This document shows positions 29,045 to 63,601 of a DNA stretch of 64,000 nucleotides, piece after piece. This stretch comes from Candidatus Saccharimonadales bacterium (GTDB taxonomy: Bacteria > Patescibacteriota > Saccharimonadia > Saccharimonadales > DATKHC01): positions 130,876 to 194,875 of the forward strand of contig DATKHC010000021.1 of NCBI GenBank assembly GCA_035510465.1, in the 5' to 3' direction. Both the position numbers and the translations under genes were made by a program. The notes under the pieces were generated by a model that was not told the DNA's origin, ran no database searches, and saw only the letters and a program-made list of their open reading frames with translations. Every line of letters begins with the position of its first letter. The first letter of the stretch is position 1.

Positions 29045-29307
29045 ACTACCTACATTATATCTCTGCTACACCTTACAAGTGCTATAATTTCAGCAACGCC
29101 CAAAGCGTTGTAACAATTTGGTATGACCTAACCCCAAGCATTTGTTTGGGTATGGTCGTAAATCCTAATCAGAGCCTTGAGCTAGTTGTTCAGGTATCTG
29201 ATTAGGTCATAGTCCGAAAGGTCTATGGGTGGCCGCAAGGTCGCCGCCTGGCAGCTAGCTCTGTTGTTTTCTGTCAGGCTAACTAACAAAGTCTGAAAGG
29301 AGACAAT

Positions 29308-29982: not shown

Positions 29983-29991
29983 GGGTTGAAT

Positions 29992-30765: not shown

Positions 30766-30810
30766 TAAAGAAAGCTCAGTTGTTCAGCTAAAAAATTGTA
30801 TAGTTTTACT

Positions 30811-31476
30811 ATGACAAAGCGAAAAGCTAGTGTCTGGCAACGAGCCATGTACCTAACAAGTAAGCCAGACTTCATAGATGATATTTTAGCCATTAGAGAA
30901 AAGTTTAGTCTCCCCACTGACGGTTTTATCTCTGACGAGGCTGTTGAAGCATGGAGAGAAAAGTATATCTATTACAAACCAGTTAGCCCTGAAGATGATA
31001 TTGAAGACGGTATTGACCTAGCTGTTGCTCGGATTATTACAAAACCAGGGTATGAGCTATCGCCTGGCTGGCATAACTCTGTCAAACGCTTTTTGCTACT
31101 AAACAATGTTGAAGATATGCAACTACCAGTGAGTATTGGCAATCAGTTGGTTGAAGATAAAGTGACCAAACAGCTCACAATCCATATTGTCGTCTCCGAA
31201 GATACCAGCAAGCAAGATTACATTGATGAGTGGGAGAACATTGAGCGAATAAGAAGTATGCGACAACTAAAAACTCCTAAACAAAGGCGACTTGCACACC
31301 CTCATATACTTAGGCGTAAAAAATTGGCTTATGAGACTTGGGTGATAACTGGCTCTTATGAAGAGGCTGCAAAAGCAGTTATAGCAAAGTACCCAAAAGA
31401 GGTTGAAGTAAAAGGCTACAATTCAGATAGTGCAAAAACTGATATATCTAACTTCATAAAGCAAGCAGGTATTTAG
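30811..31476 (+). CDS. Hypothetical protein
   Basis: ORF with ATG at 30811 (the track starts at TTG 30796). No motif recognised. Confidence 0.55.
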   Translation: MTKRKASVWQRAMYLTSKPDFIDDILAIREKFSLPTDGFISDEAVEAWREKYIYYKPVSPEDDIEDGIDLAVARIITKPGYELSPGWHNSVKRFLLLNNVEDMQLPVSIGNQLVEDKVTKQLTIHIVVSEDTSKQDYIDEWENIERIRSMRQLKTPKQRRLAHPHILRRKKLAYETWVITGSYEEAAKAVIAKYPKEVEVKGYNSDSAKTDISNFIKQAGI

Positions 31477-31528
31477 TGCTGGCTTAAATAAACTTACCTA
31501 GCAACTGTATGAGCGTAAGTTGTAGGGT

Positions 31529-31711
31529 ATGTCACTTGTTAGGTCTAAGCCATCAAGAAGCGTTGAGGTTGATGAGAAATCATTCAAGACTAAACGCAAA
31601 GAAGACGCTCTTGAGCTTGCTCAAATCTTATATGACATCTTCAAAGAAAAGCAGGCTAATGATAAACTTAAAAATGGACAAAACAATGCACAACAAATCA
31701 CAAACAGTTAG
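31529..31711 (+). CDS. Micro-ORF upstream of the LSR (60 aa), candidate accessory factor
   Basis: ..ALELAQILYDIFKE.. shares the helix motif seen at 15265 and 55444. Confidence 0.4.
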   Translation: MSLVRSKPSRSVEVDEKSFKTKRKEDALELAQILYDIFKEKQANDKLKNGQNNAQQITNS

Positions 31712-31794
31712 TTTATTAGTATCAGTGGGAGCTTTCGTAGGCCTTGCATTGGCCTTGTCCAGGAAGCTCCCTCTTATATTAGTAAGGAGCTGTT

Positions 31795-33357
31795 ATGCCT
31801 AAACAAATACTAGCCATAGCATTGTGCAGAGTATCTTCTCTTGAGCAGTTACAAAGTCACAGTCTTGATAATCAAAAAGACAAAGTATTAAGAGCTGCTG
31901 AGGTACTTGGAGCAACCATACCTGCTGATGGTATATGGTCAGGTCATGTATCAAGTAAAAAGGGCGTGAACTATGACCGCAAAGACCTCAAGGAAATGCT
32001 TGAATACTGTAAGAAAACTCCAAATGTTAAGTACCTTATAGTTCAAGAGGTAGATAGGTTTATGAGAAGCCCTGATGAGCAGGTGTATTTCCAGGTCAAG
32101 TTTAGTGAAGAGGTGGGAGTTAAGATATGGTATGCCGATAAGCCTGAGCTTAATGAAGATAATATATATGCTGGCCTGATGAGGTACATGGAGGGGTTTC
32201 GTGCTGCTGGCAGCAATGATGAACGCCAAAGAAAATCAATCACAGGACAAACAAACGCCCTTAACGCTGGAAGATACCCATTTGCTCCAAAGCCAGGCTA
32301 TATTAGGGGGCATATTCCTGGCATACAAGAGCTTCACCCTGTTAGAGGCAAAATACTACAAGATACTTTGATTAGCATTGTTACTAAACGATTATCACCC
32401 ACTCAAGCTCTCATTAAGCTAAATGATAGCGAGTATATGCAGGGTCATTCTCCATACAAAATGGACAAGTTCAGGACTATCGTCACAGACCCTTTTTATG
32501 CTGGAATTGTTGAAATTGATAAACAAGTACAAGTCCGAAACGAAAACGGCTTGCATGAGCCACTGATAACCAAAGAGCAACACAACAAGCTACTTGAGAT
32601 TATGAACGCTAAGAAAAAGGTGCAAGCTGGCCCAAGAAAAGGCGGTAACCCTGAATACCCATTATCAAACCAAGTAAATTGTATTGAGTGCAGAGAGGCA
32701 AGGAATGGCCGACTTGTGGGCTACAAACATGGTAACGGCAAACCTAACTCAACGCTCGTGTATCACAAGTATCGCTGTCGGTCTTGTGCTAGATACCAGT
32801 CCAGAGAGGAACTTCACCCAAAAATTGCTCAAAAGTTCAATGAGAGGCCAGTCACTGATGGCGGTAAGCAAGACCTGTTAGAGGCGTTGAAGATAGTTTG
32901 GGAGCAAAATGAAAGCCAAGTAGAACAAGACATAAACCGCTTGCAACATAGCATTGACCAGCTTGATAGCTTTATTGAAGAGCGAGTAAATGCTGCAACT
33001 GACCCAAAGTACAGTGCGATTGCAACAGACATCATGAAGTTGGTAGAGAAAAAGAAGACCGAACGCTCAAAGTTACAAGAGCAGCTTTCAAACCTTACTA
33101 CAACGGCTGATGAAGATAATGAACGGTTTCTTGATTTTGCCTTTGATTATCTTAACGACATAGGTAAAAACTTCTTCAGCCCTGATGTGTCACTTGAAAA
33201 CAGATTGAGGTGTAAACAAGCTATATTTCCAGCAGGATTTTGGGTTGATAAAAATAGAAAAGTTTACACCCCTGAAATAAGCTATCTTTACAGATTGGCG
33301 GAAAAGAAAAAGGACGCCAGAGCGTCCAATAATTCCCTAATGGTGCGGCATAGCTGA
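31795..33357 (+). CDS. Large serine recombinase (integrated, C-terminally truncated form)
   Basis: 520 aa. AIALCRVSSLEQ motif, zinc ribbon CIECREA..YRCRSC and a coiled coil. It ends SLMVRHS*, 3 codons after the TGGTGC core. Confidence 0.9.
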   Translation: MPKQILAIALCRVSSLEQLQSHSLDNQKDKVLRAAEVLGATIPADGIWSGHVSSKKGVNYDRKDLKEMLEYCKKTPNVKYLIVQEVDRFMRSPDEQVYFQVKFSEEVGVKIWYADKPELNEDNIYAGLMRYMEGFRAAGSNDERQRKSITGQTNALNAGRYPFAPKPGYIRGHIPGIQELHPVRGKILQDTLISIVTKRLSPTQALIKLNDSEYMQGHSPYKMDKFRTIVTDPFYAGIVEIDKQVQVRNENGLHEPLITKEQHNKLLEIMNAKKKVQAGPRKGGNPEYPLSNQVNCIECREARNGRLVGYKHGNGKPNSTLVYHKYRCRSCARYQSREELHPKIAQKFNERPVTDGGKQDLLEALKIVWEQNESQVEQDINRLQHSIDQLDSFIEERVNAATDPKYSAIATDIMKLVEKKKTERSKLQEQLSNLTTTADEDNERFLDFAFDYLNDIGKNFFSPDVSLENRLRCKQAIFPAGFWVDKNRKVYTPEISYLYRLAEKKKDARASNNSLMVRHS

Positions 33358-48188: not shown

Positions 48189-48668
48189 CTAAACGGGTTC
48201 GGTTTCGTATTCAGAGTAAATGACACCACTCAATACATCTTCAATTACTAACCTAACTAGGGGAAGCATATTATCAGGAAGCTTATCTAAAGGAAACCAC
48301 GACAAATCGTCGCACTTTCCCGGTTCTTTGTTTGTTACCTCACCGTCCCACCGCCAAGCCTCGAAAAATAAATCAATTCTTTCCTGGTCTTTTTGATTTC
48401 TCGTAAGCCGATGTGCTATATGCACAAATTTTAAATCGGTTTGACTCAATTCTATCCCAGCCTCTTCTTCAGCTTCTCTTATTATGGCATCTGTACTAAG
48501 CTCGTCACCGTCTTGGTGTCCAGCGATTACGCTATACTTGCCATCTTGATACCCCGTATTTGCTCGTCTTAACAGCAATATTTCATTATCTCGCCTTAAT
48601 AGCAGGTATACAGCTGGAATTAATTTAAACCTCTCTTTCGGATGACTGTCTGTTCCCGTTTTATTCAT
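48189..48668 (-). CDS. Nudix hydrolase
   Basis: Nudix box GHQDGDELSTDAIIREAEEEAGI. The track ORF extends to 48767, but that extension is read-through of repeat unit 1. Start set at MNKTG (48668). Confidence 0.85.
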   Translation of the reverse strand: MNKTGTDSHPKERFKLIPAVYLLLRRDNEILLLRRANTGYQDGKYSVIAGHQDGDELSTDAIIREAEEEAGIELSQTDLKFVHIAHRLTRNQKDQERIDLFFEAWRWDGEVTNKEPGKCDDLSWFPLDKLPDNMLPLVRLVIEDVLSGVIYSEYETEPV

Positions 48669-48697
48669 ACATTGATAATTACTATAGCAAAACACAA

Positions 48698-48870
48698 CAA
48701 AAACCCCTGAATTAACAAGGGTCATAATGCTTATGGTGGAGCACCTCCAAAATAATTCACCCCTCATATTTGATGAAATAAGGAGATAGAGGTATTTACT
48801 CTGGGATGAGTACCTATATTTCCAACAGAGTAAAACTAGCTTTAAGAAGGTAGGTATCCCCTGATGGTAT
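48698..48870 (+). repeat. ssrA-array junction unit 1 (hairpin, LSR-end remnant, core 48734-48742, tail arm with nonsense codon)
   Basis: Tail frame reads MVEHLQNNSPLIFDEIRR*, with TGG changed to TAG at 48787-48789. Hairpin cccctg..caaggg lies at 48704-48721. Confidence 0.65.
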
Positions 48871-49452
48871 TCACTTCTGGCTTAAGCTTAATTGCCTAGT
48901 TCTAATTACGAGTAGGCTAAAGATAGCTGTAGAGACAATTACACTATAGACAGGAACTACAAGCAACTTTGCGTCCAATTTTCCAACAGATATCGAACCG
49001 AATATACCAGCTACACTTGTAGTAAACCAGCTTAAATGCGTCTCTGTATTAGGTTTAAAATAACCTTTTTTAACTGTAGGAATATAGCTTAAGGTTGATA
49101 CTAATAGGTTACAATACAACGACACCAGAGGTGTTTTAAGTATCCACCATAGGAGAAGACCTATTATTGCACCACTTAAGCATAGGATGTCCAGTTTAGC
49201 GAAGCCACCAACTCCTTTTTTAATTGATAGAAGAAATACTACCAACGTTATTAGTATCCACGATACAACTAAATATAGAGAACTTCGTGCTCCCAAAGAC
49301 CACTGATTTGCTAAATAGATGAGATTAAGCGTAAGAAATAATAACCATGATATTCTATGTGGTTTAGTCTTACCTTTTACGGTGTCTAATATATACGGAA
49401 TGTCACCAAGTATATAAATAATGCCACCTATAATTCCTATGATTGCAAACAT
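48871..49452 (-). CDS. Polytopic membrane protein (cassette gene)
   Basis: 193 aa with about 6 TM helices. No family assigned. Confidence 0.65.
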   Translation of the reverse strand: MFAIIGIIGGIIYILGDIPYILDTVKGKTKPHRISWLLFLTLNLIYLANQWSLGARSSLYLVVSWILITLVVFLLSIKKGVGGFAKLDILCLSGAIIGLLLWWILKTPLVSLYCNLLVSTLSYIPTVKKGYFKPNTETHLSWFTTSVAGIFGSISVGKLDAKLLVVPVYSVIVSTAIFSLLVIRTRQLSLSQK

Positions 49453-49477
49453 GCATAAATAGTATCAGAAACAATAA

Positions 49478-49656
49478 AAGTGGCCTCCAAAAACAGGGGT
49501 CATAATGCTTATGGTGGAGCACCTCCAAAATAATTCACCCCTCATATTTGATGAAATAAGGAGATAGAGGTATTTACTCTGGGACGACTATATTTACTAT
49601 AAACAGGAGAAAGAAGGGTCTAAGGAGATAGCGGTCCGCTGAGGTTATTCGCACAC
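49478..49656 (+). repeat. ssrA-array junction unit 2 (core 49512-49520, tail arm with nonsense codon)
   Basis: Nearly identical to unit 1 across the core and first ~95 nt of the arm. Same TAG at 49565-49567. The hairpin is degenerate. Confidence 0.65.
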
Positions 49657-49941
49657 TTAGAAAGGGCTGATGGATACATGGCTAAGCATCACTACGGCCC
49701 CAACAAAAGAGAAAACGCATAGTAACGTGCTGATAACAGCGGCTTTATTTTTTGCTTTAATTAGCCATATTAAATTCAGAATTAATAATATGGGTAGTAA
49801 AAAATCAAAATAGGCGTTGGTAGATGGAGGATTAAGACTATTTCTATAAAGTACGACTATCCCGATTTCATATAAGTTGTACAGAGCATATAGGATCGTT
49901 ACACATATAAGTACTTTTTCAATTTTATTTATTTTAACCAT
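49657..49941 (-). CDS. Small membrane protein (cassette gene)
   Basis: About 94 aa with 3 hydrophobic helices. ATG 49941 is preferred over the track's GTG 49965. Confidence 0.55.
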   Translation of the reverse strand: MVKINKIEKVLICVTILYALYNLYEIGIVVLYRNSLNPPSTNAYFDFLLPILLILNLIWLIKAKNKAAVISTLLCVFSFVGAVVMLSHVSISPF

Positions 49942-49965
49942 ATGGATAATAATACCAAAAGTCAC

Positions 49966-50150
49966 AAAAATGACCTCACTTTAGAGAGGTCATAATGATA
50001 TTGGTGGAGCACCTCCAGAATAATTCACCCCTCATCTTTGATGAAATACGGAGATGGAGGTATTTACTCTGGGATGATTATATTTACTTTAAACGAGACG
50101 AAAGGCTTAAAGAGCTGTCCATCCCCTAGGGGTTATCACACTTTTTTATA
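49966..50150 (+). repeat. ssrA-array junction unit 3 (core 50002-50010, intact 42-codon tail)
   Basis: Tail frame 50001..50129 reads LVEHLQNNSPLIFDEIRRWRYLLWDDYIYFKRDERLKELSIP*. The hairpin atgacctc..gaggtcat at 49970-49993 has a different sequence from units 1 and 4 but the same position. Confidence 0.65.
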
Positions 50151-50221
50151 TACTCAGCCTTACTTGGTTTTACGTCTAGAAATGTGCCCTGGAATAAAGA
50201 ATACAGAAGCAATTACTGCTA

Positions 50222-50443
50222 TTACCAACCCGTAGAACACGTAAAATAAAATCCTATCCCACTAAGACCAGCAGTGGTATCCTCGGCGGCGTTAGGATGC
50301 TTGATGCCTATAATAAGAAAATAAACTGCATATCCAAAGAATAAGGCCGCAATGACGTATCCTAAAATTCCAACATAAAACAATATCGAGCCGAACATTT
50401 TCTTCGTGGAAATCGATTGTTTAGTAAAGTTACTAGTCGGCAT
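50222..50443 (-). CDS. Small membrane protein (cassette gene)
   Basis: 73 aa with two hydrophobic helices. Confidence 0.5.
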   Translation of the reverse strand: MPTSNFTKQSISTKKMFGSILFYVGILGYVIAALFFGYAVYFLIIGIKHPNAAEDTTAGLSGIGFYFTCSTGW

Positions 50444-50482
50444 TCTCTCGAAATCATATACTTTTAGGTCATTTCGTGCAAC

Positions 50483-50667
50483 AAAAAACCCCTGAATTCA
50501 CAGGGGTCATAATGCTTATGGTGGAGCACCTCCAAAATAATTCACCCCTCATCTTTGATGAAATAAGAAGATGGAGGTATTTACTCTGGGATGATTATAT
50601 TTACTATAAACGGAGGCGAGAACAGCCTAAGGAGATAATAGTCCGCTAGGGGTATACGCCCACCTAT
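50483..50667 (+). repeat. ssrA-array junction unit 4 (core 50519-50527, intact 43-codon tail)
   Basis: Tail frame 50518..50649 reads MVEHLQNNSPLIFDEIRRWRYLLWDDYIYYKRRREQPKEIIVR*. Hairpin cccctg..cagggg lies at 50489-50506. Differences from unit 3 include synonymous CAA/CAG and AGA/CGG. Confidence 0.65.
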
Positions 50668-51369
50668 TTATAATAAAACTAGCGTTGCTATTCTTAAACA
50701 GTACCCGAACAATATGTCGTCAAAAACCTCTTGACCCAATTTCTCTTTGTTCTTGCGTATCTGGTCTTCACTACTACCCTTAATCTGATAAACCTCATTC
50801 ATAATTCTCGTAAACACTTCAGTCGTAACGTTTAATGCTAGGTTATAAATGCTGTTAAGGTATCGCTCAAACTCATTTGGTGCAATTAATGTATACTTCT
50901 TATAGCTTGATTTCCACAGCAACGAATATGCTCCATATTCTAAACCTCTACTTATTGGGTCATCTGAAAAAATCTCATACTTATCCTTGTCTTCTTCCTT
51001 CATAAACTCTCGAATATGTGTAGCCAAATCTTTTCTGTTTATAGCGGTCTTCTTGCCTTTGATTTCTTCGGTAACCCTTAATGAATATCCAGCCAACATA
51101 TTAGCCCCGTACTGCCCGAAGAGTGGGTTAAGGTCAAACCCTGATTGAACGCCAACCGAAGGCAGTCCCTGACTTAGTTGTGCTTGCATTTGGTAGTATT
51201 GTTTCTCTTGTTTTGACTGTATGGTAGCTTCGGCTTTACTAGGCAGTAACTTACTCCTATTTAGCTCGTCATTTGAGTGGAGTAAGCTATCTACTGAATT
51301 AAATATGTCATTAAACTTATTGTCTTTTACGTTTGGGTCATTGGGTGTAACAAAAATCGGAGTGTCCAT
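50668..51369 (-). CDS. Hypothetical protein
   Basis: 233-aa ORF with no motif recognised. Confidence 0.55.
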   Translation of the reverse strand: MDTPIFVTPNDPNVKDNKFNDIFNSVDSLLHSNDELNRSKLLPSKAEATIQSKQEKQYYQMQAQLSQGLPSVGVQSGFDLNPLFGQYGANMLAGYSLRVTEEIKGKKTAINRKDLATHIREFMKEEDKDKYEIFSDDPISRGLEYGAYSLLWKSSYKKYTLIAPNEFERYLNSIYNLALNVTTEVFTRIMNEVYQIKGSSEDQIRKNKEKLGQEVFDDILFGYCLRIATLVLL

Positions 51370-51440: not shown

Positions 51441-52109
51441 ATGATGCAAAATCGTAAAGAGTTAAGACCAATAGGTAGCAAGCTTAAACCCACTAAAGCT
51501 GGTAAGCCAATTTCATATTCTGACCATATAACCTTCGAAGAGCTTGTATCCGAAATTCAGATGCTCGTAAGTAGCAAGAGCAATACTGTGGTTGTCGCTA
51601 TATCAGGCTTTGGAGGTGCTGGGAAAACGACTTTAGCCGAAAAACTTAAAAATCGCTTTCACGGCTCAACATGGATTCAGCTCGATAACTTTATTGTAAA
51701 CAGAACTAAGGGTGATGATTGGGATTCAGGCTACGACTGGAGTCGGCTCGAGAGAGTCCTAAGGGACGTTCGAGCTGATAAGGAGCTACACTACCAATTC
51801 TATGACTGGCATAAAGACGCTCTTACGGGCTGGATAGATGTAAGCCCGCTACCAAAACTAATTATTGTCGAGGGCATTCGTCTGTTACAGCCAAAGTTCA
51901 TGACCTACTTTGACCTAAGCGTGTGGATTGACTGCCCTATTGAAGTAGCTGCAAAGCGTGGCATAGAGCGGGACAGAAAAAACGGAGTAGATAACCAGCA
52001 CATACTTGAGTGGGAGAAAAACTGGATACCAAAAGACAAAACATTCTACGAAATGTACAGACCTGACGAAAGTGCCAGTTTCTTAGTCGAGTCTCATATC
52101 ACTGACTGA
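51441..52109 (+). CDS. P-loop kinase, uridine kinase/PRK-like
   Basis: Walker A ISGFGGAGKTTLAEKL and the later IIVEGI segment, typical of the Udk/PRK family. Confidence 0.6.
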   Translation: MMQNRKELRPIGSKLKPTKAGKPISYSDHITFEELVSEIQMLVSSKSNTVVVAISGFGGAGKTTLAEKLKNRFHGSTWIQLDNFIVNRTKGDDWDSGYDWSRLERVLRDVRADKELHYQFYDWHKDALTGWIDVSPLPKLIIVEGIRLLQPKFMTYFDLSVWIDCPIEVAAKRGIERDRKNGVDNQHILEWEKNWIPKDKTFYEMYRPDESASFLVESHITD

Positions 52110-52164: not shown

Positions 52165-52203
52165 CTGGTGGAGAATATTCAAAATAATTCAACCCTCATC
52201 TAG
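52165..52203 (+). repeat. ssrA-array junction unit 5 (truncated)
   Basis: ctggtggagaatattcaaaataattcaaccctcatctag reads LVENIQNNSTLI* in the recombinase frame. This is a protein-level variant of LVEHLQNNSPLIF, cut off where gene 52200..52844 ends. Confidence 0.5.
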
Positions 52204-52844
52204 ATACAGACGTCTTTTCCCAAATGAGTGAGATATTGCCTGTCCCACCATAAAAAACGTAAGTAGGCTCCGTATCCAAGTTGTGCTTCGCTACTGGATG
52301 CTTTTAGAATGTTTCTTGTAAATTCTTGTTTACCCTTTTTTACAGATTCAGAAGCTGATTTACCTTTTAGAAGGCTAACCACAACTTGATTAGATGGGTC
52401 TAGAAATAACGCAGCTGTTTTATCTGTCCTTGGTTTGGACGTTGTTCCACCCTCACTAAAAAAGATAAAATCCTGAGTATAGCCAATAAAGCTTTTAGCA
52501 CCTTTTTTAATTGTTTCGGGGCCAAGTTGTGCTGCTGACTTGCAAGAAACAGCATATGCAATCGTACCTTTAAGTATTTTGGAGTTATCCATATCCAAAA
52601 GCACTTCTTCGTCTTGGCCAGTAACACAATGTTCGGCACCATGACCGTTCATAAATATCAAATCTGGAGACATTTTGGTGACGATACTCTCAAACTCTTT
52701 TCTATTAGCACGCTTTTTATCTAACTTTAAGACGTTAACGCTTCTTCTTTCAGCATATTGAATTAACGACTTTGCCCAAGCTGCTAAATATCTAGTTGTC
52801 GGTTCATAGTCTGGCATTGTCACCAAGACTGTCTTGTTGCTCAT
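52200..52844 (-). CDS. Hypothetical protein with a caspase-like His/Cys dyad pattern
   Basis: Start at ATG 52844, with SD gagggtga upstream. The segments IFMNGHGAEH and AYAVSCKSAA resemble the H-G ... C arrangement of C14/CHAT-type peptidases. The assignment is weak. Confidence 0.5.
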   Translation of the reverse strand: MSNKTVLVTMPDYEPTTRYLAAWAKSLIQYAERRSVNVLKLDKKRANRKEFESIVTKMSPDLIFMNGHGAEHCVTGQDEEVLLDMDNSKILKGTIAYAVSCKSAAQLGPETIKKGAKSFIGYTQDFIFFSEGGTTSKPRTDKTAALFLDPSNQVVVSLLKGKSASESVKKGKQEFTRNILKASSSEAQLGYGAYLRFLWWDRQYLTHLGKDVCI

Positions 52845-53058
52845 GGTCGTAAATATCACCCTCTTTTAATGCCCGTAAAAATTCAATATCTACTTCTATA
52901 ATCTTCTTACCTATTTCATCCCCGTCTTCGACATGTTTTAGTAGCTGGATTTTATCGATTGTGCCTACATCTCCAATCGAGATACTTGCATCAGCCGGTA
53001 AAGCCTGTAGCCTTGCTAGAACAAGCTTCTGGAATTCCTTATCCAATTCGGTCTGCAT
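52804..53058 (-). CDS. Hypothetical small acidic protein
   Basis: 84 aa, in an operon-like arrangement with its neighbours. Confidence 0.45.
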   Translation of the reverse strand: MQTELDKEFQKLVLARLQALPADASISIGDVGTIDKIQLLKHVEDGDEIGKKIIEVDIEFLRALKEGDIYDHEQQDSLGDNARL

Positions 53059-53241
53059 CTAAATTAACCCCATTTCAATCAACTTCTTCATTATAGTCTT
53101 ACCTAGTGCCGTCTCATTTATAATTTCTACGTATGCTGCGTTCCACGTTAGTGGACCAACCTCATCAAGTACTACGACAATTTCATTACGAGCTGCGATA
53201 GGCAGATTCGCATAGACTTTTTGAAACCGTGATATATCCAT
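53059..53241 (-). CDS. Hypothetical small protein
   Basis: 60 aa. It abuts the next ORF, with the stop directly followed by the next ATG. Confidence 0.4.
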   Translation of the reverse strand: MDISRFQKVYANLPIAARNEIVVVLDEVGPLTWNAAYVEIINETALGKTIMKKLIEMGLI

Positions 53242-53540
53242 GATAATTTTACTTATTTTATGTATCCTACTTCAAAATATACCATATATTGCTTATGTTT
53301 AACTGAAGTAACAGATGTAAACTATGTTTACCGTAACCTATACATTTGACTTTGTCAAATATACTCAACCAATTAATCTAGTGATTTAAACAGAGTGTCG
53401 CACAATGTGCATTTTCGGACTCGCACTAACAGAGGTTGGTGGCGTTTTTTATCATATAAGAGCCTTGTCAAGGGCGACACTTATTTAACTCCGCCTCTGT
53501 TAAAAGACATATCATAACACATTCGCTTTTTGGCTATATA

Positions 53541-54449
53541 TTAGCAATTAATTGCGGCCAGTTGCGATTGATAACTTTGCTGAAGCTCTTGGCTTTGTTG
53601 TGTGTAGCTCTGTTCTAGCTCGGAGATTTGCTGCTGGCCAACTCCAGAACTTTCAATTCCTTCCTGCCCCAACTTAGTCTCTAGAGCCGACAGGGCTGCA
53701 CTTTCTTGGTCGCCAAGGTTAGTCTGGTTCGCTTGGTATTCCGAGGAATCCTCAGCTTTTAGTTGTTCGTTACAAGTTGGAGGCGCTGGTGTAGTGGTTG
53801 TGTTTGTTGGCGCAGGCTGAGTCGTAGTGCCAGTACTAGCAATAGGTGTATTTGACATAGGACTTGAAGCGTAATCAGTCGGGGTTGTTTGCAACGTATA
53901 AGGTGTATATGAATAGGTTGGCAATGTAACCCCAGCGACAGTATTACTTTGGGTAGAGGCTACAGGTATATTTGAAGTAATATTGTTGATATCACTAATC
54001 TCAGCTTGGGTGAAGTTCTGTTCATTTTTAACATTGTCTAGGCATCCTTGGAGGATTTGTTCACCAGTAGATGCAACGTCTAGAACTTTTTGGTTGGTCG
54101 TTAAAATGCCTTGTGCTGCAATGAGGTTTGCCGTGTTACTAGACCAAGCAGGTTCTTTGATTAATTGTCCTATCTGATTAGTTTCAGAGTTAACTTGCCC
54201 AATTACGGAGTTATATTTGCTCATGTCATCGTTACATATTTTTTGTAAGTAAGCATATTGATAACCTGACTGTGTGCCTAATGATGCTAAGCTTACGACT
54301 TGCTTAGGAGATGTCTTTGGGTGAAATACAACTAGACCAATACTGGCTGCGGATATGATAAGAACGCTTAAACCAACCAGGAATTTACGCCTAGTCTTTC
54401 TTTTCTTTCGTTCTCTGTTAATTGAGTCTAAAAAACTTGTATCAGCCAT
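53541..54449 (-). CDS. Membrane-anchored Q/S/T-rich protein
   Basis: 302 aa. TM FLVGLSVLIISAASIGLVVF, then low-complexity T/Q-rich and coiled-coil-like regions. Confidence 0.6.
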   Translation of the reverse strand: MADTSFLDSINRERKKRKTRRKFLVGLSVLIISAASIGLVVFHPKTSPKQVVSLASLGTQSGYQYAYLQKICNDDMSKYNSVIGQVNSETNQIGQLIKEPAWSSNTANLIAAQGILTTNQKVLDVASTGEQILQGCLDNVKNEQNFTQAEISDINNITSNIPVASTQSNTVAGVTLPTYSYTPYTLQTTPTDYASSPMSNTPIASTGTTTQPAPTNTTTTPAPPTCNEQLKAEDSSEYQANQTNLGDQESAALSALETKLGQEGIESSGVGQQQISELEQSYTQQSQELQQSYQSQLAAINC

Positions 54450-54878
54450 ATAACTACTTACTATCCTTGCTATTTGTTGACTCCGAGACTTAAAAGCTCG
54501 CCACTAAGCGAAACCGAAGTCTCTGTAACCGTTTCCAGCTACAACTACAACGAAGAGTACTCAATGACGAGCTGTCTTTCGTTGTAGATTTATTGACCAT
54601 GCCATTAAAGAATGGTTTAGGTTGAAGTGGTAAAACCACTTAATTGAAATTATACATCTAGTTGCTTAGTTGCGCCGATAGACCATGTTGAACCTAGTTA
54701 AGTACCTATAAACATATTGATTAGCAATGTTTCGTGTAGCGCCCAAAAAAATAACAAATAGTACCCATAAAACAAATATGGGGAACACCCCTGTCAGATA
54801 TATATCTAATCCATCTCTTACGCCGTTCTGGTACGGTACCAAACGTATCCCTATTTAATAGGGGTCGATAAACAAAGC

Positions 54879-55337
54879 TTAGTTATTCTCTGGCCAGACT
54901 GCTTTAAGTAGAGCTACTTCATCATTTCTGTCTGAGGCTAGTTTTATAGCTTTCTGTTGGTCGGGTGTGTATATATCGTTATTATAAGGATTCAGTGCAT
55001 TTTGCTTGCTAATTAACTCTTTTTGGCTTTGCATTTCTTTGACTATACGAACTAGACTGTTTGTCTCTATTAAATAGGGGTCGTCTAGCCTCTTTTCGAG
55101 CTCTCTAAGGGCTTTTAAGTGAACTCTCGTAACAATGTCTGTATCTGACTTACTAATAGCCTTTTTCATCTGTAGTAGTACGGGGTTATTCCGCTTTTTT
55201 ATCTTCTTAATAGTTGACATCGGAACGCTTGTCTTAACACTCACGTCCGCGTACCTATAACCCAAGGCAATTAGCTTGACTACATTGCGTTCTACGTCAG
55301 GCTTTGTTCGTAGGTGATGTATTTGAAGATTACTCAT
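54879..55337 (-). CDS. HTH DNA-binding protein (element regulator)
   Basis: 152 aa. KLIALGYRYADVSVKTSVPMSTIKKIKKR is an HTH-like segment. Confidence 0.5.
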   Translation of the reverse strand: MSNLQIHHLRTKPDVERNVVKLIALGYRYADVSVKTSVPMSTIKKIKKRNNPVLLQMKKAISKSDTDIVTRVHLKALRELEKRLDDPYLIETNSLVRIVKEMQSQKELISKQNALNPYNNDIYTPDQQKAIKLASDRNDEVALLKAVWPENN

Positions 55338-55443
55338 ACTTTAAAGTGTTATACACTTCGCGAGACTTGACAATTATCAGGTCTGATGAAAAATCGTGGA
55401 GCTGATGGTTATATTGGATTAATCATTGTGCGAGAGTAGCCAC

Positions 55444-55572
55444 ATGAGCACTAGCGCAAAGGCTGTGGCTAACGTGCCAGAAGACCCACTTATACCCGAG
55501 AACTATGAAAAAACTGATTTAGATGAACTGTGTTTATGGCTTTATGATATATACGAGGAATCAATAACTTAA
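55444..55572 (+). CDS. Micro-ORF upstream of the LSR (42 aa), candidate accessory factor
   Basis: ..LDELCLWLYDIYEE.. shares the helix motif with 15265 and 31529. Below the track cutoff. Confidence 0.35.
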   Translation: MSTSAKAVANVPEDPLIPENYEKTDLDELCLWLYDIYEESIT

Positions 55573-55704
55573 CTATTTGAATATATTAGGGGAAGAGCTC
55601 GGCATGAAGATTACCACTGTTACTCAAAAATATAAATGGCAGCCCAAAAATGTCTTTGCTGAGTCATTCCCTTGGACTGCTATTCATCTGTTTGAGGTCA
55701 CAAT

Positions 55705-57321
55705 ATGAAGGAACAAGGTATAGCACTATGTCGTATTTCCTCCGATGACCAAATTAAGGGTCATAGCCTTGAGGCTCAAGACACTAGCACCAGGAAAGCA
55801 GCCAATAGTATCGACGTTGAGTTAATTAAGACTTGGACGGAAGTTAAGTCAAGCAAAAAAGGTAAAAACTTTGGAAGAAAAGATTTGGAAGAAATGCTAC
55901 GTTTTTGTAAACAAAACAAACGCGTTAAATACCTTTTTATAGATTTCATGAGCCGCTTAATGCGAGAGGTTGAAGTAATGATTTACTATAAGGTACTGTT
56001 CAACCAAATGGGTGTGAAATTACATTTTTGTGACCCTTCACAACAGCACCTTAACGGAGAAGACCAAATCGCTCAACTTATGCGATTAATAGAGGGTTAC
56101 AAATCGGAAACAGAAAATACAGCCAGACAAGAAACAACTATTGCTCGAATGAAAGCTCGGTATGAGGCTGGTTACTATATTTCACACCCACATCAGGGTT
56201 ATATAAAATCAGATGTGGCTGGTGTGCACATCCCTGACCCAAAGAGATTCGATTTATTACAAAAAGGTGGTCGTTTGATGATTTACGAGCAGCATAGCGT
56301 TCAGCAAGCAATCAAATGGATGAATGAAAACGGATATTTAACATTAGGCGGTAGACCACTCGACTTAAATCACTATATAGAATTTATTGTAGATAGATAT
56401 TACTGTGGCATTATTGATATACAGTCAGAGGGTTGGCCTAAAGATATACTCGGATTACATCAACCCATGTTTACGCAACGCGAACATAAAATACTTTCCG
56501 CTTTAATAACGAAGCGGAATCCACGCGTTAGACAAGCACACAATCCCGACTTCCCAATGTCTAATATTATTAGGCATAAGGAGTGCGAGGGTATTGGACG
56601 TTACGAAAAGTTTACTGGTCATATTTACAATCGAGGGAAAAGGCCTAGTGGTAGTCAAAGACCATTAAAGCCGGTTTATGATTGCCGAGATTGCAGACAA
56701 CGGATACAGAGGGATAAGGCGCACTCCTCTCTCACACACTACTTAAGCAAATTAAACCTACTGCCTGACGAAAAGCACTTTAAAGAGGCTTTGATTCGTG
56801 TCTGGAGAAGTCAAAGAGGTTCTCAATCCCAGAGACTTAACAGTCTACAGGGCAATAAGGTTAGGATTGAGCAGAAAATAAGAGAAACTGCTGCTATTTA
56901 CGCTTCTGAACAAGATGAATCCATTAAACAATCACTTGGCTTACTGTTAAAAGACTACGATGCTCAATTGAAGCAAATTGATACAGACGTTACCAGCAAT
57001 AAAAACTTAGAAATAGAGTCAGAAGATTTCGTCCGTTTCGCTATGGACTTCGTGGCTAACCTCAAGAATAAATGGTGGAAATTAAGCTGGGATAACATTG
57101 CGAGGGGTGAACAAGTTTTATTTAACGGCAAAATTTACATTGATAATTCTGCAAAAGTTCACACCCCCAATTTAAGCTCAATTTACAGATTAGGGACAAA
57201 CAAAAAAGCACTAGAAAATGCTTCTAATGCTCATTTGGTGGAGCTGCCGGAGTACTGCCCTCCGGGTCCGCTAGCTTACTGTAGCCAATCTTCTACGAGT
57301 GTAGGTCATTTAGATAAGTAA
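55705..57321 (+). CDS. Large serine recombinase; its 3' end overlaps the tmRNA antisense
   Basis: 538 aa. IALCRISSDDQ motif, Cys pairs (..YDCRDCRQ..) and a coiled coil. The last ~28 codons (..HLVELPEYCPPGPLAYCSQSSTSVGHLDK*) are the antisense of the tmRNA 3' domain. Confidence 0.9.
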   Translation: MKEQGIALCRISSDDQIKGHSLEAQDTSTRKAANSIDVELIKTWTEVKSSKKGKNFGRKDLEEMLRFCKQNKRVKYLFIDFMSRLMREVEVMIYYKVLFNQMGVKLHFCDPSQQHLNGEDQIAQLMRLIEGYKSETENTARQETTIARMKARYEAGYYISHPHQGYIKSDVAGVHIPDPKRFDLLQKGGRLMIYEQHSVQQAIKWMNENGYLTLGGRPLDLNHYIEFIVDRYYCGIIDIQSEGWPKDILGLHQPMFTQREHKILSALITKRNPRVRQAHNPDFPMSNIIRHKECEGIGRYEKFTGHIYNRGKRPSGSQRPLKPVYDCRDCRQRIQRDKAHSSLTHYLSKLNLLPDEKHFKEALIRVWRSQRGSQSQRLNSLQGNKVRIEQKIRETAAIYASEQDESIKQSLGLLLKDYDAQLKQIDTDVTSNKNLEIESEDFVRFAMDFVANLKNKWWKLSWDNIARGEQVLFNGKIYIDNSAKVHTPNLSSIYRLGTNKKALENASNAHLVELPEYCPPGPLAYCSQSSTSVGHLDK

Positions 57322-57632
57322 TTAGAGAGCAAACGACCAAAAACTAACTACTTGTGTCCTAAATCTTTACAATACTTACGGACAGTAAGCACTGTGCATC
57401 CAGATAAATTGACACGAATATACATTATCTGACGTCATGCAAATCCGTGGCTCCAGAAATTAAACTGAAGCTAGTGCGTATTGACGAGGAACAAGGTTCT
57501 TTACAGAATCCTTGACCCAAGCTACTGCGCTAGATACTTTTGTTGCATCTACATTGGTTTGCCGTATAACGCTCAGCCAGCGACTCGCTGATATAGCTTG
57601 TAAGGTCCAACGTCGAGCTTAAAATCAGCCCC
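57236..57632 (-). ncRNA. ssrA: tmRNA (SsrA)
   Basis: The 5' end GGGGCTGATTTTAAGCTCGACG and 3' end ..CGGAC-CCGGAG-GGCAGTA-CTCCGG-CAGCTCC-ACCA match canonical tmRNA ends (E. coli ends ..GGAC..CAGCTCCACCA). The acceptor stem has a G3:U pair. The internal tag ORF ends ..PRQYALASV-TAA. Confidence 0.85.
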
Positions 57633-60370: not shown

Positions 60371-63300
60371 TTATATCAACTTATTAAATGGAGCAAACGC
60401 CAAAGATAAATTCTTTAAGCCACCCTTCTTAAAATGAACTACTACCCTATCGCCGGCTACTTCAATCACCTCCCCGGGCCCAAAAATCTTATGATTAACC
60501 AAATCACCCTCAGATACTTCAATTTCATAACGAACTTCATCCTCATAGGCATGGCTAGTAAGCTTTTCTGAGTTTTGGTCTAGGTCGTACTGATTAGGCG
60601 AGGTTTCAAACTCTGCCTCCATATCGCTCAAAAACCTTGACGGGGGGTTATGTTGAACGCTGCCATAAAGTAGACGACTGGTTGCATAGCTTAGGTAAAG
60701 CTCTTTTTTTGCCCTGGTCATGCCAACATAACAGAGCCGTCTCTCTTCCTCTAAATTTTCTTGGTCGTATAGTGAGCGGCTACTTGGGAATATTGTTTCT
60801 TCCATCCCAACCATAAATACAGTCGGAAATTCCAAACCTTTAGCTGCATGCATCGTCATAAGCGTTACGCTATCTTCTTGGGTCTGTGCCATTTCAAGCT
60901 TAGATATTAACGACACTCCCTCTAAGAACTCTCCGAGATCAGAGCTTAAATACTCTTTCGTAACGCTAAGCAGTTCCTGGACGTTTTGTGTCCGGCTCTC
61001 CCCCTGAATAGTACCGTCACTTAAGAAAGCATAATAATCTACTCGTCTGACTAGACTATCAATCAAACTATTTAGGGGTGCTTCCTCGCTGTATTGTTTA
61101 AGCGAACTTAGGATGTCAGCCAGCTCACCAAGCCCAGTCTTAGCTTTAGTAGTTAGACTTGGATGCTTGTCCGCTCGGTTTAGGGCTTCCGATAGAGAAA
61201 GTTTATTCTGGTGCTGCCATATGAAAAAGTCACTTAGTGATTTGGCGCCTATGCCTCTGGTGGGCACGTTAACAATTCGCTCAAAACTAATCCGATCTTC
61301 GGGCTGGTAGATTAATCTAAGGTAAGCAATTATATCCTTAATTTCTTTTCTATCGTAAAAACGTAGTCCGCCGACAATCCTGTAAGGAACTGCATAGCGA
61401 ATAAAAGCCTCTTCCAAAGCACGGCTCTGGGCATTGATACGGTACAAAATCGCAAAATCTGCATAATTATTTAGCTTTGCATCGGCCAGTGCCCGGATTC
61501 GGGTTACAATTGCCTCCGCTTCCTCAGACTCCGAAGAGTATTGAACTATATGAACGGGTTTACCGCTGCCCTCAGACGTCCAAAGTTTTTTTTCCGATCT
61601 CTTCTGATTTTTGCTTATAACGGAGTGGGCGGCATCTAGGATTGACTTTGTGCTGCGATAATTTTGCTCAAGTTTTATTATTTGGGCTCCAGGAAAATCT
61701 TGCTCAAACTTCAAAATATTACGAAAATCTGCTCCCCTCCACGAATAAATTGAATTGTGCACAGCGATGCCTGACACAAGGTAGGTATGCACTTTTTCTA
61801 TATCTAGGTCGTAAACAAAACCAGAATATGTTTGTTTAGTAACCTCTACGACCTTATCTGTGACGATCTTGTCCCCCTCAAGCACAGGAATATCCATTTC
61901 TTGGTGAATTTGGCCAGCTGGCATAAAATAAAACTTCTTATTAGTTAAGAAACTATACTTAATAAGTATAGTTTCCTCAGTCTTACCTTGTTTGATCTTT
62001 TCAACTATTTGTTCGATTTTTCCGTAATCAAGATTTGAGATCTCTGTTCTGAATGTTCCTGCCCGGCCGGCCCTTATGGTGTAGCCCAAGTCCTCAAACA
62101 GTTTTAAGTCTTTTTTTGAAGTTGTATTTACGGAAATTCTACTCGCTGACCAGCCGCCTTGCCCCGCAAGCCTCTTGTCCCCAAAAAGGACAACGTTTAT
62201 TACGACCCTTTTGCGGTTTTTTCTACTCGTTGCTTGAGGCAAAAAGTGCGGATACTCAAAAGCTAAGCCTAATTCAGTCATTAGTTTTTTTGCTCTTTCC
62301 TCGGTATCAATTTCGGAATAAATTGCGTCAATGTGTTTCTGGCTAATGTACATAGATCGGTTGGCGAATGCATGAAATACAAGCATTGGTATACCGTACT
62401 TATATGCATAGAGCGATTCAGTGTATATCGCTTCGTCTTTATCCTTGCAGACCTTAATAATCCACATTCGGTCTGCTCTTTCCTGATTTGCCCTCACACG
62501 CAGCCCAATATCGTCCTTTTTACCATCAAATCTGGTACCTTTGGCTAGTCCTATCCGATACCCTTTCTCGGATGAGTACATTAAATATACGAAATAGGAA
62601 TCGGTTTTTTCCCATCGAGCAAAGAGAAGATGGTTTGGTGTACAAACTAGTTCCTTGCCGGAAGCTGTCTTAATACGTATGACATCCCCTTTGTAGGCAA
62701 ATTTCTTTTGACTCTCTACTTTAAAATAACCCGTATTTCCATAACCGCTGGCGGATTTAACTAAATATCCTTTTTTTATGGCTTCTATTTTTCTGCTACC
62801 CTCTTTGGTTTCGATGAGGCTCCCTGGCATTAAACATTGCCAGTCATCACCCACAACTGCGATATTTTTTTGCTTTCCCAGGAGAAGCTTGATCAATTCA
62901 TATTGAGCCTGGTTAGTGTCCTGATACTCATCAACCATGATGTATTTGAACTGTTTTTGCCATTTTAATTTAACCTCGTTGTCGGACCTTAGAAGTTGTA
63001 CGGTCTTTAGGAGTAGGTCATCAAAATCAAGACCATGGGCCTGTTTTAAGATTGATTCATACTCCGGAAAGACACTAGCTGCCACCCGCTGCAGCTGACC
63101 ACTAGCTAGAGTTGCGTAAGTTTCCGGGTCAATCATTTCATTTTTACTAGAACTGATTATTGAGCTGATTGAACGAGCAGGATAACTTTTCTCTTCAATT
63201 TTGAGGTTTTTCATGGCCTGTTTGATCGCATTTAGATGGTCAGCCTCATCAAAAATAACGAAGTTTGACGGGATACCAATGTTTGCGCCATCAACTCTTA

Positions 63301-63601
63301 AGAGCTTGACGCAGACTCCATGAAATGTGCCAAGAAAAGGCATGAACATGCGATGAGCTGAGTTTTGACCAAGTAATTTCGCAACTCGTTCGCGCATTTC
63401 GTTGGCTGCTTTGTTTGTGAAAGTAACTGCTAATATTTCCTGAGGTTTTGTGTCGGTCGTAGCTAACAAATACGCCATTCTATGCGTTAAGGTTTTAGTT
63501 TTGCCAGAACCCGCCCCCGCCAATATAAGCAAAGGGCCGTTAACTTGCTTAACTGCCCTTACCTGTTCGCTATTTAATCCAACTGTAAGTTCATCTGACA
63601 C
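60371..63601 (-). CDS. pcrA: PcrA/UvrD-family DNA helicase interrupted by an intein
   Basis: Walker A AGAGSGKTKTL, DEYQD, then ..VVGDDWQ | intein | SIYSWRGAD (motif III), plus later helicase motifs. The extein is about 715 aa. Confidence 0.9.
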   Translation of the reverse strand: MSDELTVGLNSEQVRAVKQVNGPLLILAGAGSGKTKTLTHRMAYLLATTDTKPQEILAVTFTNKAANEMRERVAKLLGQNSAHRMFMPFLGTFHGVCVKLLRVDGANIGIPSNFVIFDEADHLNAIKQAMKNLKIEEKSYPARSISSIISSSKNEMIDPETYATLASGQLQRVAASVFPEYESILKQAHGLDFDDLLLKTVQLLRSDNEVKLKWQKQFKYIMVDEYQDTNQAQYELIKLLLGKQKNIAVVGDDWQCLMPGSLIETKEGSRKIEAIKKGYLVKSASGYGNTGYFKVESQKKFAYKGDVIRIKTASGKELVCTPNHLLFARWEKTDSYFVYLMYSSEKGYRIGLAKGTRFDGKKDDIGLRVRANQERADRMWIIKVCKDKDEAIYTESLYAYKYGIPMLVFHAFANRSMYISQKHIDAIYSEIDTEERAKKLMTELGLAFEYPHFLPQATSRKNRKRVVINVVLFGDKRLAGQGGWSASRISVNTTSKKDLKLFEDLGYTIRAGRAGTFRTEISNLDYGKIEQIVEKIKQGKTEETILIKYSFLTNKKFYFMPAGQIHQEMDIPVLEGDKIVTDKVVEVTKQTYSGFVYDLDIEKVHTYLVSGIAVHNSIYSWRGADFRNILKFEQDFPGAQIIKLEQNYRSTKSILDAAHSVISKNQKRSEKKLWTSEGSGKPVHIVQYSSESEEAEAIVTRIRALADAKLNNYADFAILYRINAQSRALEEAFIRYAVPYRIVGGLRFYDRKEIKDIIAYLRLIYQPEDRISFERIVNVPTRGIGAKSLSDFFIWQHQNKLSLSEALNRADKHPSLTTKAKTGLGELADILSSLKQYSEEAPLNSLIDSLVRRVDYYAFLSDGTIQGESRTQNVQELLSVTKEYLSSDLGEFLEGVSLISKLEMAQTQEDSVTLMTMHAAKGLEFPTVFMVGMEETIFPSSRSLYDQENLEEERRLCYVGMTRAKKELYLSYATSRLLYGSVQHNPPSRFLSDMEAEFETSPNQYDLDQNSEKLTSHAYEDEVRYEIEVSEGDLVNHKIFGPGEVIEVAGDRVVVHFKKGGLKNLSLAFAPFNKLI
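61754..62836 (-). mobile_element. Intein (361 aa) within helicase motif III
   Basis: Begins with Cys (CLMPGSLIET..), ends ..SGIAVHN, and is followed by Ser. Boundaries verified at the nucleotide level (TGT at 62834-62836, AAT at 61754-61756). Confidence 0.85.

Follow-up and report, generated by a model that had tools for sequence, protein, structure and literature searches.

Arrays of single-gene segments beside the tmRNA gene of Saccharibacteria: probable serial insertion and decay of large serine recombinase elements

The stretch analysed here, referred to as the window, comprises 64,000 nt of contig DATKHC010000021.1 (assembly GCA_035510465.1, Candidatus Saccharimonadales bacterium, positions 130,876 to 194,875). 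It contains the transfer-messenger RNA (tmRNA) gene ssrA, a predicted large serine recombinase (LSR) gene that overlaps its 3' end and, further to the left, an array in which repeated units of ~190 nt alternate with small genes. A repeat search detected a 188-nt direct repeat in four copies (at 48694, 49472, 49962 and 50479, spaced by 778, 490 and 517 nt) and a fifth, partial copy at 52166. A 34-nt pattern of core plus arm occurs four times, against zero occurrences expected in 64 kb, and a profile built for the unit matched ~190 nt in each of U1 to U4 with E values of 1e-48 to 1e-54 and U5 with an E value of 0.0035. No units beyond U1-U5 were retrieved when the array region was searched with this profile. 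Read in the sense of the LSR gene (plus), a unit consists of an X arm, which is a short remnant of an LSR 3' end carrying a terminator, a 9-nt core and a P' arm of ~135 nt. The features of the locus, where ORF stands for open reading frame, are as follows:

48189-48668, minus: Nudix hydrolase gene (Pfam PF00293, E 2.5e-16), beyond the last detectable unit
48685-48884, plus: unit U1; X arm terminator (minus sense) 48694-48733, core TGGTGGAGC 48734-48742, P' arm to ~48881 with an in-frame TAG
48871-49452, minus: cassette gene, ORF for a 193-aa multi-pass membrane protein with hydrophobic, transmembrane-like segments
49466-49660, plus: unit U2; core 49512-49520, weak hairpin, P' arm with the same TAG as U1
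49657-49965, minus: cassette gene, ORF for a membrane protein with transmembrane-like segments, 102 aa from GTG or ~95 aa from the first ATG
49953-50147, plus: unit U3; core 50002-50010, terminator 49993-49970 (minus), P' arm ORF intact
50222-50443, minus: cassette gene, ORF for a 73-aa membrane protein with transmembrane-like segments
50472-50670, plus: unit U4; core 50519-50527, terminator 50508-50487 (minus), dyad centre 50525/50526, P' arm ORF intact
50668-51369, minus: 233-aa ORF of the two-gene segment between U4 and U5
51441-52109, plus: 222-aa P-loop (PRK/uridine-kinase-like) kinase of the same two-gene segment
52130-52201, plus: unit U5, degenerate; own hairpin, core TGGTGGAGA, P' arm shortened by a 14-nt deletion; forms the distal end of the resident LSR element
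52200-55700, minus: cargo of the resident LSR element, ORFs of 219, 84, 60, 302 and 152 aa; LOOT RNA at 54510-54623
55705-57321, plus: predicted LSR gene, 538-aa ORF; overlaps the ssrA 3' end by 86 nt on the opposite strand
57206-57232, minus: intrinsic ssrA terminator; 12-bp stem and T-run, fold z-score -4.05, inside LSR codons (..NKKALENASNAH..)
57236-57632, minus: ssrA (Rfam RF00023, 71.2 bits); its last 9 nt, GCTCCACCA, are the core of every unit

Leftward from ssrA, the order is ~5 kb of cargo, U5, the two-gene segment, U4, the 73-aa gene, U3, the 102-aa gene, U2, the 193-aa gene, U1 and the Nudix gene; the chromosomal flank to the right of ssrA encodes MarR, KsgA, a G5/3D protein and UvrD. 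A preliminary description, made from the sequence alone, had placed exactly one minus-strand gene between consecutive units. According to the ORF list this holds for three intervals (193, 102/~95 and 73 aa), whose products all have transmembrane-like segments, in agreement with their description as membrane proteins, and it does not hold for U4-U5, which contains two genes. The Nudix hydrolase reported after the last unit was confirmed by its Pfam match. This gene is either chromosomal flank or an older cassette, and the profile search found no unit in the stretch from the Nudix gene to the Crp gene. The 193-aa protein is 100% identical to a protein from an NCBI metagenome-assembled genome of Candidatus Saccharimonadales (P0085; labels of the form P00xx denote database homologue proteins), and the 102-aa protein has no Pfam or PHROG match. 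A gap of ~75 nt (50150-50221) separates the end of the U3 P' arm from the stop codon of the 73-aa gene, unlike the other cassette genes, which abut units; given this gap, the 3' end of the 73-aa gene may be truncated.

The tmRNA gene was found with Rfam and missed in an ARAGORN scan of the window. Its T-arm is unusual (CCGGAG-GGCAGUA-CUCCGG), and the G3:U pair of its acceptor stem falls inside the 9-nt recombination core. The best terminator of the region (57232-57206) lies beside ssrA within the 3' end of the LSR gene, where the LSR codons ahead of the core (..NKKAL..NAH..) encode an A-run and a hairpin. The X arms of the units likewise have an A-run and a hairpin, followed in their case by TCATAATGCTTA, and on the minus strand they form an intrinsic terminator ~12 nt after ..CCA. 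A hairpin with T-run stands directly past the core on the minus strand in U1 (48723-48702), U3 and U4, and is weak in U2. The proposal that each insertion hands ssrA a new terminator agrees with these positions.

The product of the LSR gene is predicted to be a large serine recombinase because it combines a resolvase domain (Pfam PF00239, E 3e-13, residues 6-156), the catalytic domain of serine recombinases, with full-length model matches to serine integrases. Its AlphaFold2 model has a mean predicted local distance difference test score (pLDDT) of 82.7, is helical at residues 182-280, contains strands at 289-335 and long helices at 356-455, and was matched by Foldseek over its full length to the SPbeta, Bxb1, phiC31 and LI integrases (E 4e-15 to 1e-9). 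Searches with the profile of the LSR family retrieve catalytic-domain structures of resolvase and TP901-1; many homologues are annotated with PF07508, and residues H291, C294, C327 and C330 are invariant among them. On the basis of the model, the Foldseek matches and the invariant residues, a C-terminal recombinase domain, a zinc-ribbon domain and an embedded coiled coil are all recognizable in the protein. Residues 505-538 have pLDDT values below 50, and residues 514-538 (LPEYCPPGPLAYCSQSSTSVGHLDK; 57235-57321, plus) are encoded antisense to the tmRNA 3' domain.

The core TGGTGGAGC is the sole stretch that the units have in common with the real ssrA end. Displaced ssrA 3' fragments were considered as an origin of the units and rejected, as only these 9 nt match ssrA and no T-arm or partial tmRNA match was found. 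A 48-bp dyad (AGGGGT/ACCCCT), located in U4, is centred within the core, and its size and symmetry are those expected of an LSR att site. To the right of the core, the P' arm continues the LSR reading frame (..LVEHLQNNSPLIFDEIRRWRYLLWDDYIYYKRRREQPKEIIVR); it is open in U3 and U4, and U1 and U2 share a TAG. The three parts (LSR-end remnant, core and tail arm) and the dyad support the view, already taken in the preliminary description, that the units are complete attP-like sites. Over the conserved 24 codons (4-27) of the U1-U4 P' arms, nonsynonymous divergence (pN) is 0.009 and synonymous divergence (pS) 0.27, and the variable sites are distributed 1:1:6 by codon position (p~0.02 by our own estimate). 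As the four arms differ almost only at third or synonymous positions, they appear to come from separate translated LSR-coding sources and not from neutral duplication in place. The arms are also mosaic, with the left arm of U1 resembling that of U4 and its right arm that of U2, as expected if each unit joins the arm of one insert to that of the next. Distal units are more decayed than proximal ones, both in the window and in a second array, that of L032 (labels of the form L0xx denote the other Saccharibacteria loci compared). The length and conservation of the units are accounted for by their composition, since a coding LSR tail and a terminator made of LSR codons make up the arms.

The homologues of the LSR indicate where the P' arm belongs. 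The homologue search retrieved 84 proteins, all from Patescibacteria-type sources. Most end in ..NAHLVEL(A/P/V)GTAPAS, which is a reading into ssrA, and distant homologues end in ..GDRGVEPLTS, which is a reading into tRNA 3' ends; these antisense C-termini suggest tmRNA and tRNA genes, at their extreme 3' ends, as the targets of the LSR family. Two homologues, P0048 and P0049, end in ..NAHLVEHLEKSTPLIFEEIRRWRYLLWDDYIEYK.., the right arm of a unit fused to the LSR, and this fusion was confirmed at the DNA level. With the LSR profile, 25 other Saccharibacteria genome loci were recovered, and in most of them a P' coding arm is present 2-10 kb upstream of the LSR gene, at the distal end of the element. 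The arm is usually single-copy in those loci, retains an open frame where it marks the distal end of an LSR-bearing element, and has a dN/dS of ~0.36 across genomes (120 pairs). Taken together, the LSR-fused arm, the distal copies and the constraint at protein level place attP inside the LSR gene, and the P' arm appears to be a detachable end of that gene which would encode an alternative C-terminus of ~45 aa.

Using the unit profile, we detected multi-unit arrays lacking an LSR in many genomes. The longest array seen, in L032 (DAIQON010000002.1, 1-8700), consists of the tmRNA gene followed by 8-9 units that are 0.63-1.37 kb apart, with no LSR. Each interval holds one gene or one toxin-antitoxin pair, among them a HAD hydrolase, a methyltransferase, a MazE/PemK pair and several unknown genes, and a homologue of the 193-aa protein (57% identity) is found at the distal end. 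The layout first noticed in the window thus recurs in other Saccharibacteria. L045 has 6-7 units, L044 has 4-5, L040 has 3, and L020, L007, L026, L027, L030 and L039 have 2-3 each. Three L032 units have a mutated core, TACGCCACACG or TATGCCAAACG instead of TATGGTGGAG; a conserved GCAAGCTTAAGC after the terminator arm resembles a -35 promoter element in the ssrA sense, and an arm-only remnant is found at 8566-8625, after the homologue of the 193-aa protein.

The cargo is almost wholly unrelated between genomes and, as both content and order of the cassettes differ among relatives, the arrays do not show the invariance that the preliminary description had named as evidence against itself. Apart from homologues of the 193-aa and 73-aa proteins, no cassettes were found to be common to arrays of different genomes. 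The homologue of the 73-aa protein (43% identity) adjoins a unit in L028, and the other homologues of the 193-aa protein are found in ordinary chromosomal contexts with no units nearby. The units themselves are more alike within an array than between genomes. A metagenome scan yielded three loci. Pattern scans for the window-type unit gave 0 matches in the genome contig and viral contig sets, and the viral contig set contained no LSR relatives, which suggests that these elements are not catalogued as viruses.

Comparisons between closely related loci reveal several of the events that shape the arrays. L031 and L039 are 98-99.8% identical. In L039, a 4384-bp LSR element occupies precisely the junction of ssrA with the arm of an LSR-less 268-aa cassette, and L031 is empty at this position; insertion of an LSR element beside an LSR-less cassette is thus seen directly. 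The pair gives attB, attL and attR with a 12-bp common core, ATGGTGGAGCTG, and the left arm of the insertion target is the arm of the LSR-less cassette. Shrinkage of a cassette by microhomology deletion is seen directly in the same pair, as L031 lacks 1060 bp of the 268-aa cassette, corresponding to two of its three genes, with TAGGGG microhomology bounding the deletion.

The LSR gene itself is found in graded states of reduction. LSR 3' remnants of ~24-95 codons occur beside ssrA or within arrays (L007, L021-L028, and units d and f of L044), and L020 has a frameshifted LSR. In L011, L027, L028, L040, L044 (units a and e) and L045 (unit g), LSR-type arms from different LSR lineages end no more than a few nt from the A-run; these independent stops fit deletion down to the part still under selection, namely the terminator. 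The preliminary description had argued that four full elements are unlikely each to have decayed to one gene plus ~50 nt of LSR end. This argument does not stand, given LSR remnants of ~15 to 95 codons in many genomes, independent arms repeatedly cut at the terminator A-run, and a cassette seen losing two of its three genes.

Cassettes can also be lost. L051 lacks three cassettes that L044 has and carries a hybrid unit that switches from b-like to e-like sequence 40-50 nt right of the core. Site-specific excision was considered for this gap; two informative sites put the switch 40-50 nt from the core, and homologous recombination between units is the preferred account of the loss. Such recombination is readily understood because the units are direct repeats of ~190 nt. 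L044 and L045 share five units with 1 single-nucleotide polymorphism (SNP) in 4.4 kb, and their similarity drops ~10-20 nt right of the core of unit e; past this point, a single LSR element is present in L044, as against two LSR-less segments and then a different LSR element in L045. This arrangement shows site-specific exchange of a block that includes LSR-less segments, and it is compatible with co-mobilization.

We consider it moderately probable that the array arose by successive insertions of LSR elements at the ssrA 3' end followed by reductive decay. This reading draws on the anatomy of the units, the coding P' arm, the insertion beside an LSR-less cassette, the decay by deletion and the loss by homologous recombination described above. 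In the free element, the LSR gene would run across its own attP: the P arm would be formed by the last ~15-20 LSR codons, which also encode the hairpin and A-run, followed by the core of 9-12 bp and by a P' arm encoding a further ~45 residues (..EHLxxSSPLIxEEIRRWRxLLWDDY..). Integration at the core would split the LSR gene: ssrA-antisense codons would take the place of the ~45-aa tail, ssrA would acquire the coding 3' end of the LSR gene as its new terminator, and the P' arm would come to lie at the opposite end of the element. The next element would insert between the terminator arm and ssrA, creating an internal joint of old P arm, core and new P' arm, which is a unit, and leaving the newest insert adjoining ssrA. 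Inserts would then be whittled down by ordinary deletions to a useful remainder, usually one gene with its promoter and the terminator arm; the P' arm would persist for a while and then decay, as exemplified by the TAG codons of U1 and U2. The serial LSR insertion proposed earlier is supported, with the units marking insertions at the ssrA 3' end and the newest of them nearest ssrA. According to this preferred reading, the window would record four or more successive insertions, each cut down to a gene and its terminator arm, with a fifth, intact element (52.2-57.2 kb) as the newest. That each of the four window cassettes began as a full LSR element is what we infer from their arms. LSR-less cassettes retain both att arms and may still travel together with a neighbouring LSR element or be mobilized in trans.

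Several observations weigh against decay in place as the whole explanation. The X arm of U1-U4 (hairpin, TCATAATGCTTA and core) is also present in L020, L030, L031 and L032, making 16 copies in five genomes with different cargo, and it adjoins the real ssrA in L030, L031 and L032. Compared with every LSR-coding arm it lacks 2 nt ahead of the core, it is out of frame with ..DNAH-LVE, and its ending (..GGTCATAATGCTTATGGTGGAG) is absent from all 84 LSR homologue C-termini. A derived arm shared in this way points to propagation of an LSR-less arm and not to 16 independent decays. Furthermore, four L032 units share their left boundary to within 1 nt, units a and e of L044 share an in-frame TAA, and the size distribution of the intervals has a sharp peak at 0.5-1.0 kb and few intermediate values. 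The single SNP in 4.4 kb between L044 and L045 leaves too little time for decay in situ and requires either transfer en bloc or the insertion of mini-elements as such. Since the X arm stands beside ssrA in L030-L032, the native ssrA flank (B arm) was considered as its source; this is disfavoured, as the distal-most arms in L029-L031 differ and the native arms of six other genomes lack the ATAATGCT motif common to X arms and LSR 3' ends. The X arm, the shared boundaries and the L044/L045 pair leave real room for LSR-less propagation, whether en bloc (accretion), in trans or by gene conversion of arms. A true cassette system, in which LSR-less one-gene mini-elements excise as circles and are inserted singly at ssrA by an LSR in trans or carried in cis, would account for these features, and also for the arrays of 8-9 single-gene cassettes without an LSR, the MazE/PemK pair among them. 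It would likewise fit the greater likeness of units within an array than between genomes, as known from the attC sites of chromosomal integrons, the exchange at a unit core of a block with two LSR-less segments (L044/L045), and the ability of an X-core-ssrA site to serve as the target of an LSR element (L031/L039); staphylococcal CcrAB, moreover, mobilize tandem cassettes that lack ccr (PMC11470126). On this view, which develops that of the preliminary description, the array would be a serine-recombinase counterpart of an integron or of an array of cis-mobilizable elements. However, among the compared loci there was no insertion of an LSR-less cassette by itself in trans, no gain of a single cassette, no circle and no cassette present in two arrays, the only resolvable cassette loss was homologous and not at the core, and one cassette is seen shrinking by ordinary deletion. 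Along their full length, the P' arms of LSR-less cassettes bear a coding signature that only LSR-bearing elements can maintain, and for many LSR-less arms a recent origin by truncation of an LSR, to varying lengths, is plain. Excision from the interior of an array would in addition require recombination between two attP-like sites, which canonical LSRs do not carry out. We therefore regard a true cassette system as possible but doubtful. A more specific version joins two claims: that Saccharibacteria possess a serine-recombinase cassette system with a dedicated non-coding arm (hairpin-terminator and TCATAATGCTTA), core and P' arm, in which genes are captured singly at the tmRNA gene and shuffled by LSRs, and that the tail swap on integration is a directionality switch, the free form having the ~45-aa RWRxLLWDDY tail and the integrated form ssrA-antisense codons. 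This combination is put forward only tentatively.

Two further explanations were considered. Tandem duplication in situ of one module of unit and gene, followed by divergence and involving no repeated insertion, would produce similar units within an array, as observed; but the cassette proteins proved unrelated to each other on comparison, so that the cassette genes could not be retained as paralogues, the X and P' arms are mosaic, the divergence of the P' arms is synonymous, other arrays mix very different unit types, and insertion has been seen directly. Such duplication is very unlikely. Finally, the units might act on the neighbouring genes as small RNA genes or as structured regulatory RNAs, in the form of 3' UTR elements or riboswitch-like leaders; this alternative, which the preliminary description had itself named, is scarcely credible. 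Each unit does carry a terminator, and the minus-strand sequence of U4 gives a better fold than shuffled controls do (z -3.8), but no Rfam match to the units was obtained at the gathering score or even at E<=5, conservation follows plus-strand codons, the units are contiguous with LSR genes in P0048 and P0049, and they occur only downstream of ssrA, whose 3' end they contain.

The ends of the resident LSR element in the window were placed from U5 and the ssrA junction. Its cargo genes are on the same strand as the cassette genes, and no phage-like functions were found in the cargo. The U5 P' arm (52166-52260) has a 14-nt deletion relative to U1-U4, leaving a post-excision LSR tail of only 12 aa (LVENIQNNSTLI*), and the 219-aa ORF (52200-52859, minus) runs antisense into this arm; given the deletion, the element may no longer be fully functional. 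A second, distant LSR element (28% identity) is present in the window at 26106-33357, with its LSR gene at 31795-33357 (plus) and a P'-like coding arm at 26106-26195 (LVQRVGKSFHLIRDEIARWREILEVPYQEY), an arm type also present in L031 at 3378-3470. The 3' end of this second LSR gene reads into ..GGTGCGGCATAGCTGACACATTGCAAACATCTGC, a similar stretch is found at 25226, and no tRNA or Rfam match was obtained at its junction. Each of the two elements has one copy of the LOOT RNA (RF03000), at 29125-29245 (plus, 84.6 bits) and 54510-54623 (minus, 63.9 bits); as no LOOT RNA was found in seven other LSR loci, it appears to be cargo of these two elements and not general to the family. Two small ORFs of ~78 aa (minus) and 68-87 aa (plus) are conserved just upstream of the LSR gene in several full elements (L008, L009 and L011, at ~9160-9880) and are possible regulators or a candidate directionality factor. 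L001 and L002 have no terminal overlap of the kind that suggests circular contigs. On the chromosomal flank, the 1076-aa ORF for a UvrD/PcrA-type helicase (60371-63601, minus) has an apparent intein-like insertion (..CLMPGSLIETKEG ... VHNS..).

Gene gain and loss are poorly understood in Saccharibacteria and other members of the candidate phyla radiation (CPR), whose genomes are very small. Beside the tmRNA gene, an ordered record of gene acquisition recurs in many lineages, with up to nine one-gene segments that are each bounded by a recognizable recombination joint. For serine integrases, it is unusual that integration swaps the C-terminus and that the last codons serve as the terminator of the essential tmRNA gene; the target, the extreme 3' end of ssrA or, in distant relatives, of tRNA genes, is unusual as well. 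Should the tail swap prove to control directionality, engineered fusions of integrases with recombination directionality factors would have a natural counterpart, one of interest for genome engineering. If LSR-less cassettes are mobile, they would represent a second, independent invention of an integron-like platform and, as a cassette system, a means of gene sampling for tiny genomes. Even as a graveyard of decayed elements, the arrays contain in their units simple sequence markers by which horizontal transfers in uncultured CPR genomes can be dated and put in order.

The closest precedent is found in Dehalococcoides, where a serine recombinase of ~540 aa inserts genomic islands in tandem downstream of the single-copy tmRNA gene, with direct repeats of the tmRNA 3' end at their borders (McMurdie et al. 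2011, PMC3146451). Many of these islands lack an integration module and were proposed to be cis-mobilizable by accretion or fixed (PMC3146451), so that tandem arrangement, ssrA-repeat boundaries, a serine recombinase as driver and integrase-less members are common to both systems. The Dehalococcoides islands, however, are many kb long and inserted in the T-loop with a 20-bp repeat, whereas the segments described here are mostly single genes of 0.5-1 kb with a joint of ~190 nt; the recombinase DsiB, with DsiA, belongs to a six-gene module on the opposite edge and stays clear of the att site (PMC3146451), whereas the LSR gene here reads through attP into ssrA and its codons form the ssrA terminator. 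In staphylococci, SCCmec and the pseudo-SCC and SCC-like cassettes (SCC, staphylococcal cassette chromosome) are serially inserted by LSRs at the 3' end of rlmH (orfX), and they include tandem recombinase-less cassettes bounded by att repeats, whose mobilization by the CcrAB of a neighbour was shown experimentally (PMC11470126). Those cassettes are large and multigene, with CcrA/CcrB pairs that act together and a recombinase gene that is not split (PMC11470126), in contrast to the one-gene segments and split LSR gene of Saccharibacteria. Tycheposons of Prochlorococcus likewise accumulate by serial insertion next to tRNA and tmRNA genes: older elements are displaced inward by newer ones, degenerate remnants and partial target repeats are left, and a minority carry LSRs (10.1101/2020.12.28.424599). 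Most use tyrosine recombinases, and they are larger and lack the regular single-gene periodicity seen here. For Saccharibacteria or Patescibacteria, no description of such arrays was found in the literature.

In the arrays described here, tandem segments are bounded by repeats of the target 3' end, with the core GCTCCACCA at each unit, and members without a recombinase arise by deletion, as evidenced by the graded LSR remnants, the L020 pseudogene and the observed deletion, and as is presumed for U1-U4. Cis-mobilizable elements of the kind known from accretion with ICESt1/ICESt3-type integrative and conjugative elements are likewise flanked by att sites and lack a recombinase; they are thought to be deletion derivatives that move with an adjacent element. 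They differ from the segments described here in depending on tyrosine integrases, in their targets and in their much larger size. The likeness to integrons is formal only. It lies in the mostly single-ORF, co-oriented cassettes (window, L032, L040 and L044/L045), the position of the newest cassette at the platform, the host-specific sites and the toxin-antitoxin cassettes. Integrons rely on the tyrosine recombinase IntI, folded single-stranded attC sites and a common promoter, Pc, whereas the joints described here are double-stranded, LSR att-like and of coding origin, with a terminator in each unit and no fixed platform recombinase. The ORFs scanned between 47260 and 58181 contained only serine recombinases and no tyrosine integrase domain, and the units have no attC-like architecture, presenting instead the 48-bp dyad and the plus-strand codon signature.

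Remodelling of a gene upon integration, with attP inside the gene and a change of C-terminus, is known from intP/intX of the Myxococcus phage Mx8, SSV1 int and the integration-dependent immunity of mycobacteriophages. The position of attP within the gene is as described here, but the recombinase class differs, the Mx8 and SSV1 integrases being tyrosine recombinases. We know of no described LSR whose gene spans attP, with the limit that our literature searches were not aimed at that case. Recombinase-less tandem segments as such have already been described, in the ssrA islands of Dehalococcoides and the ccr-less SCC-like cassettes. The new features of the Saccharibacteria arrays are their one-gene miniature periodicity, their phylum, an LSR gene that spans attP and has its C-terminus swapped, and an ssrA terminator located within LSR codons.

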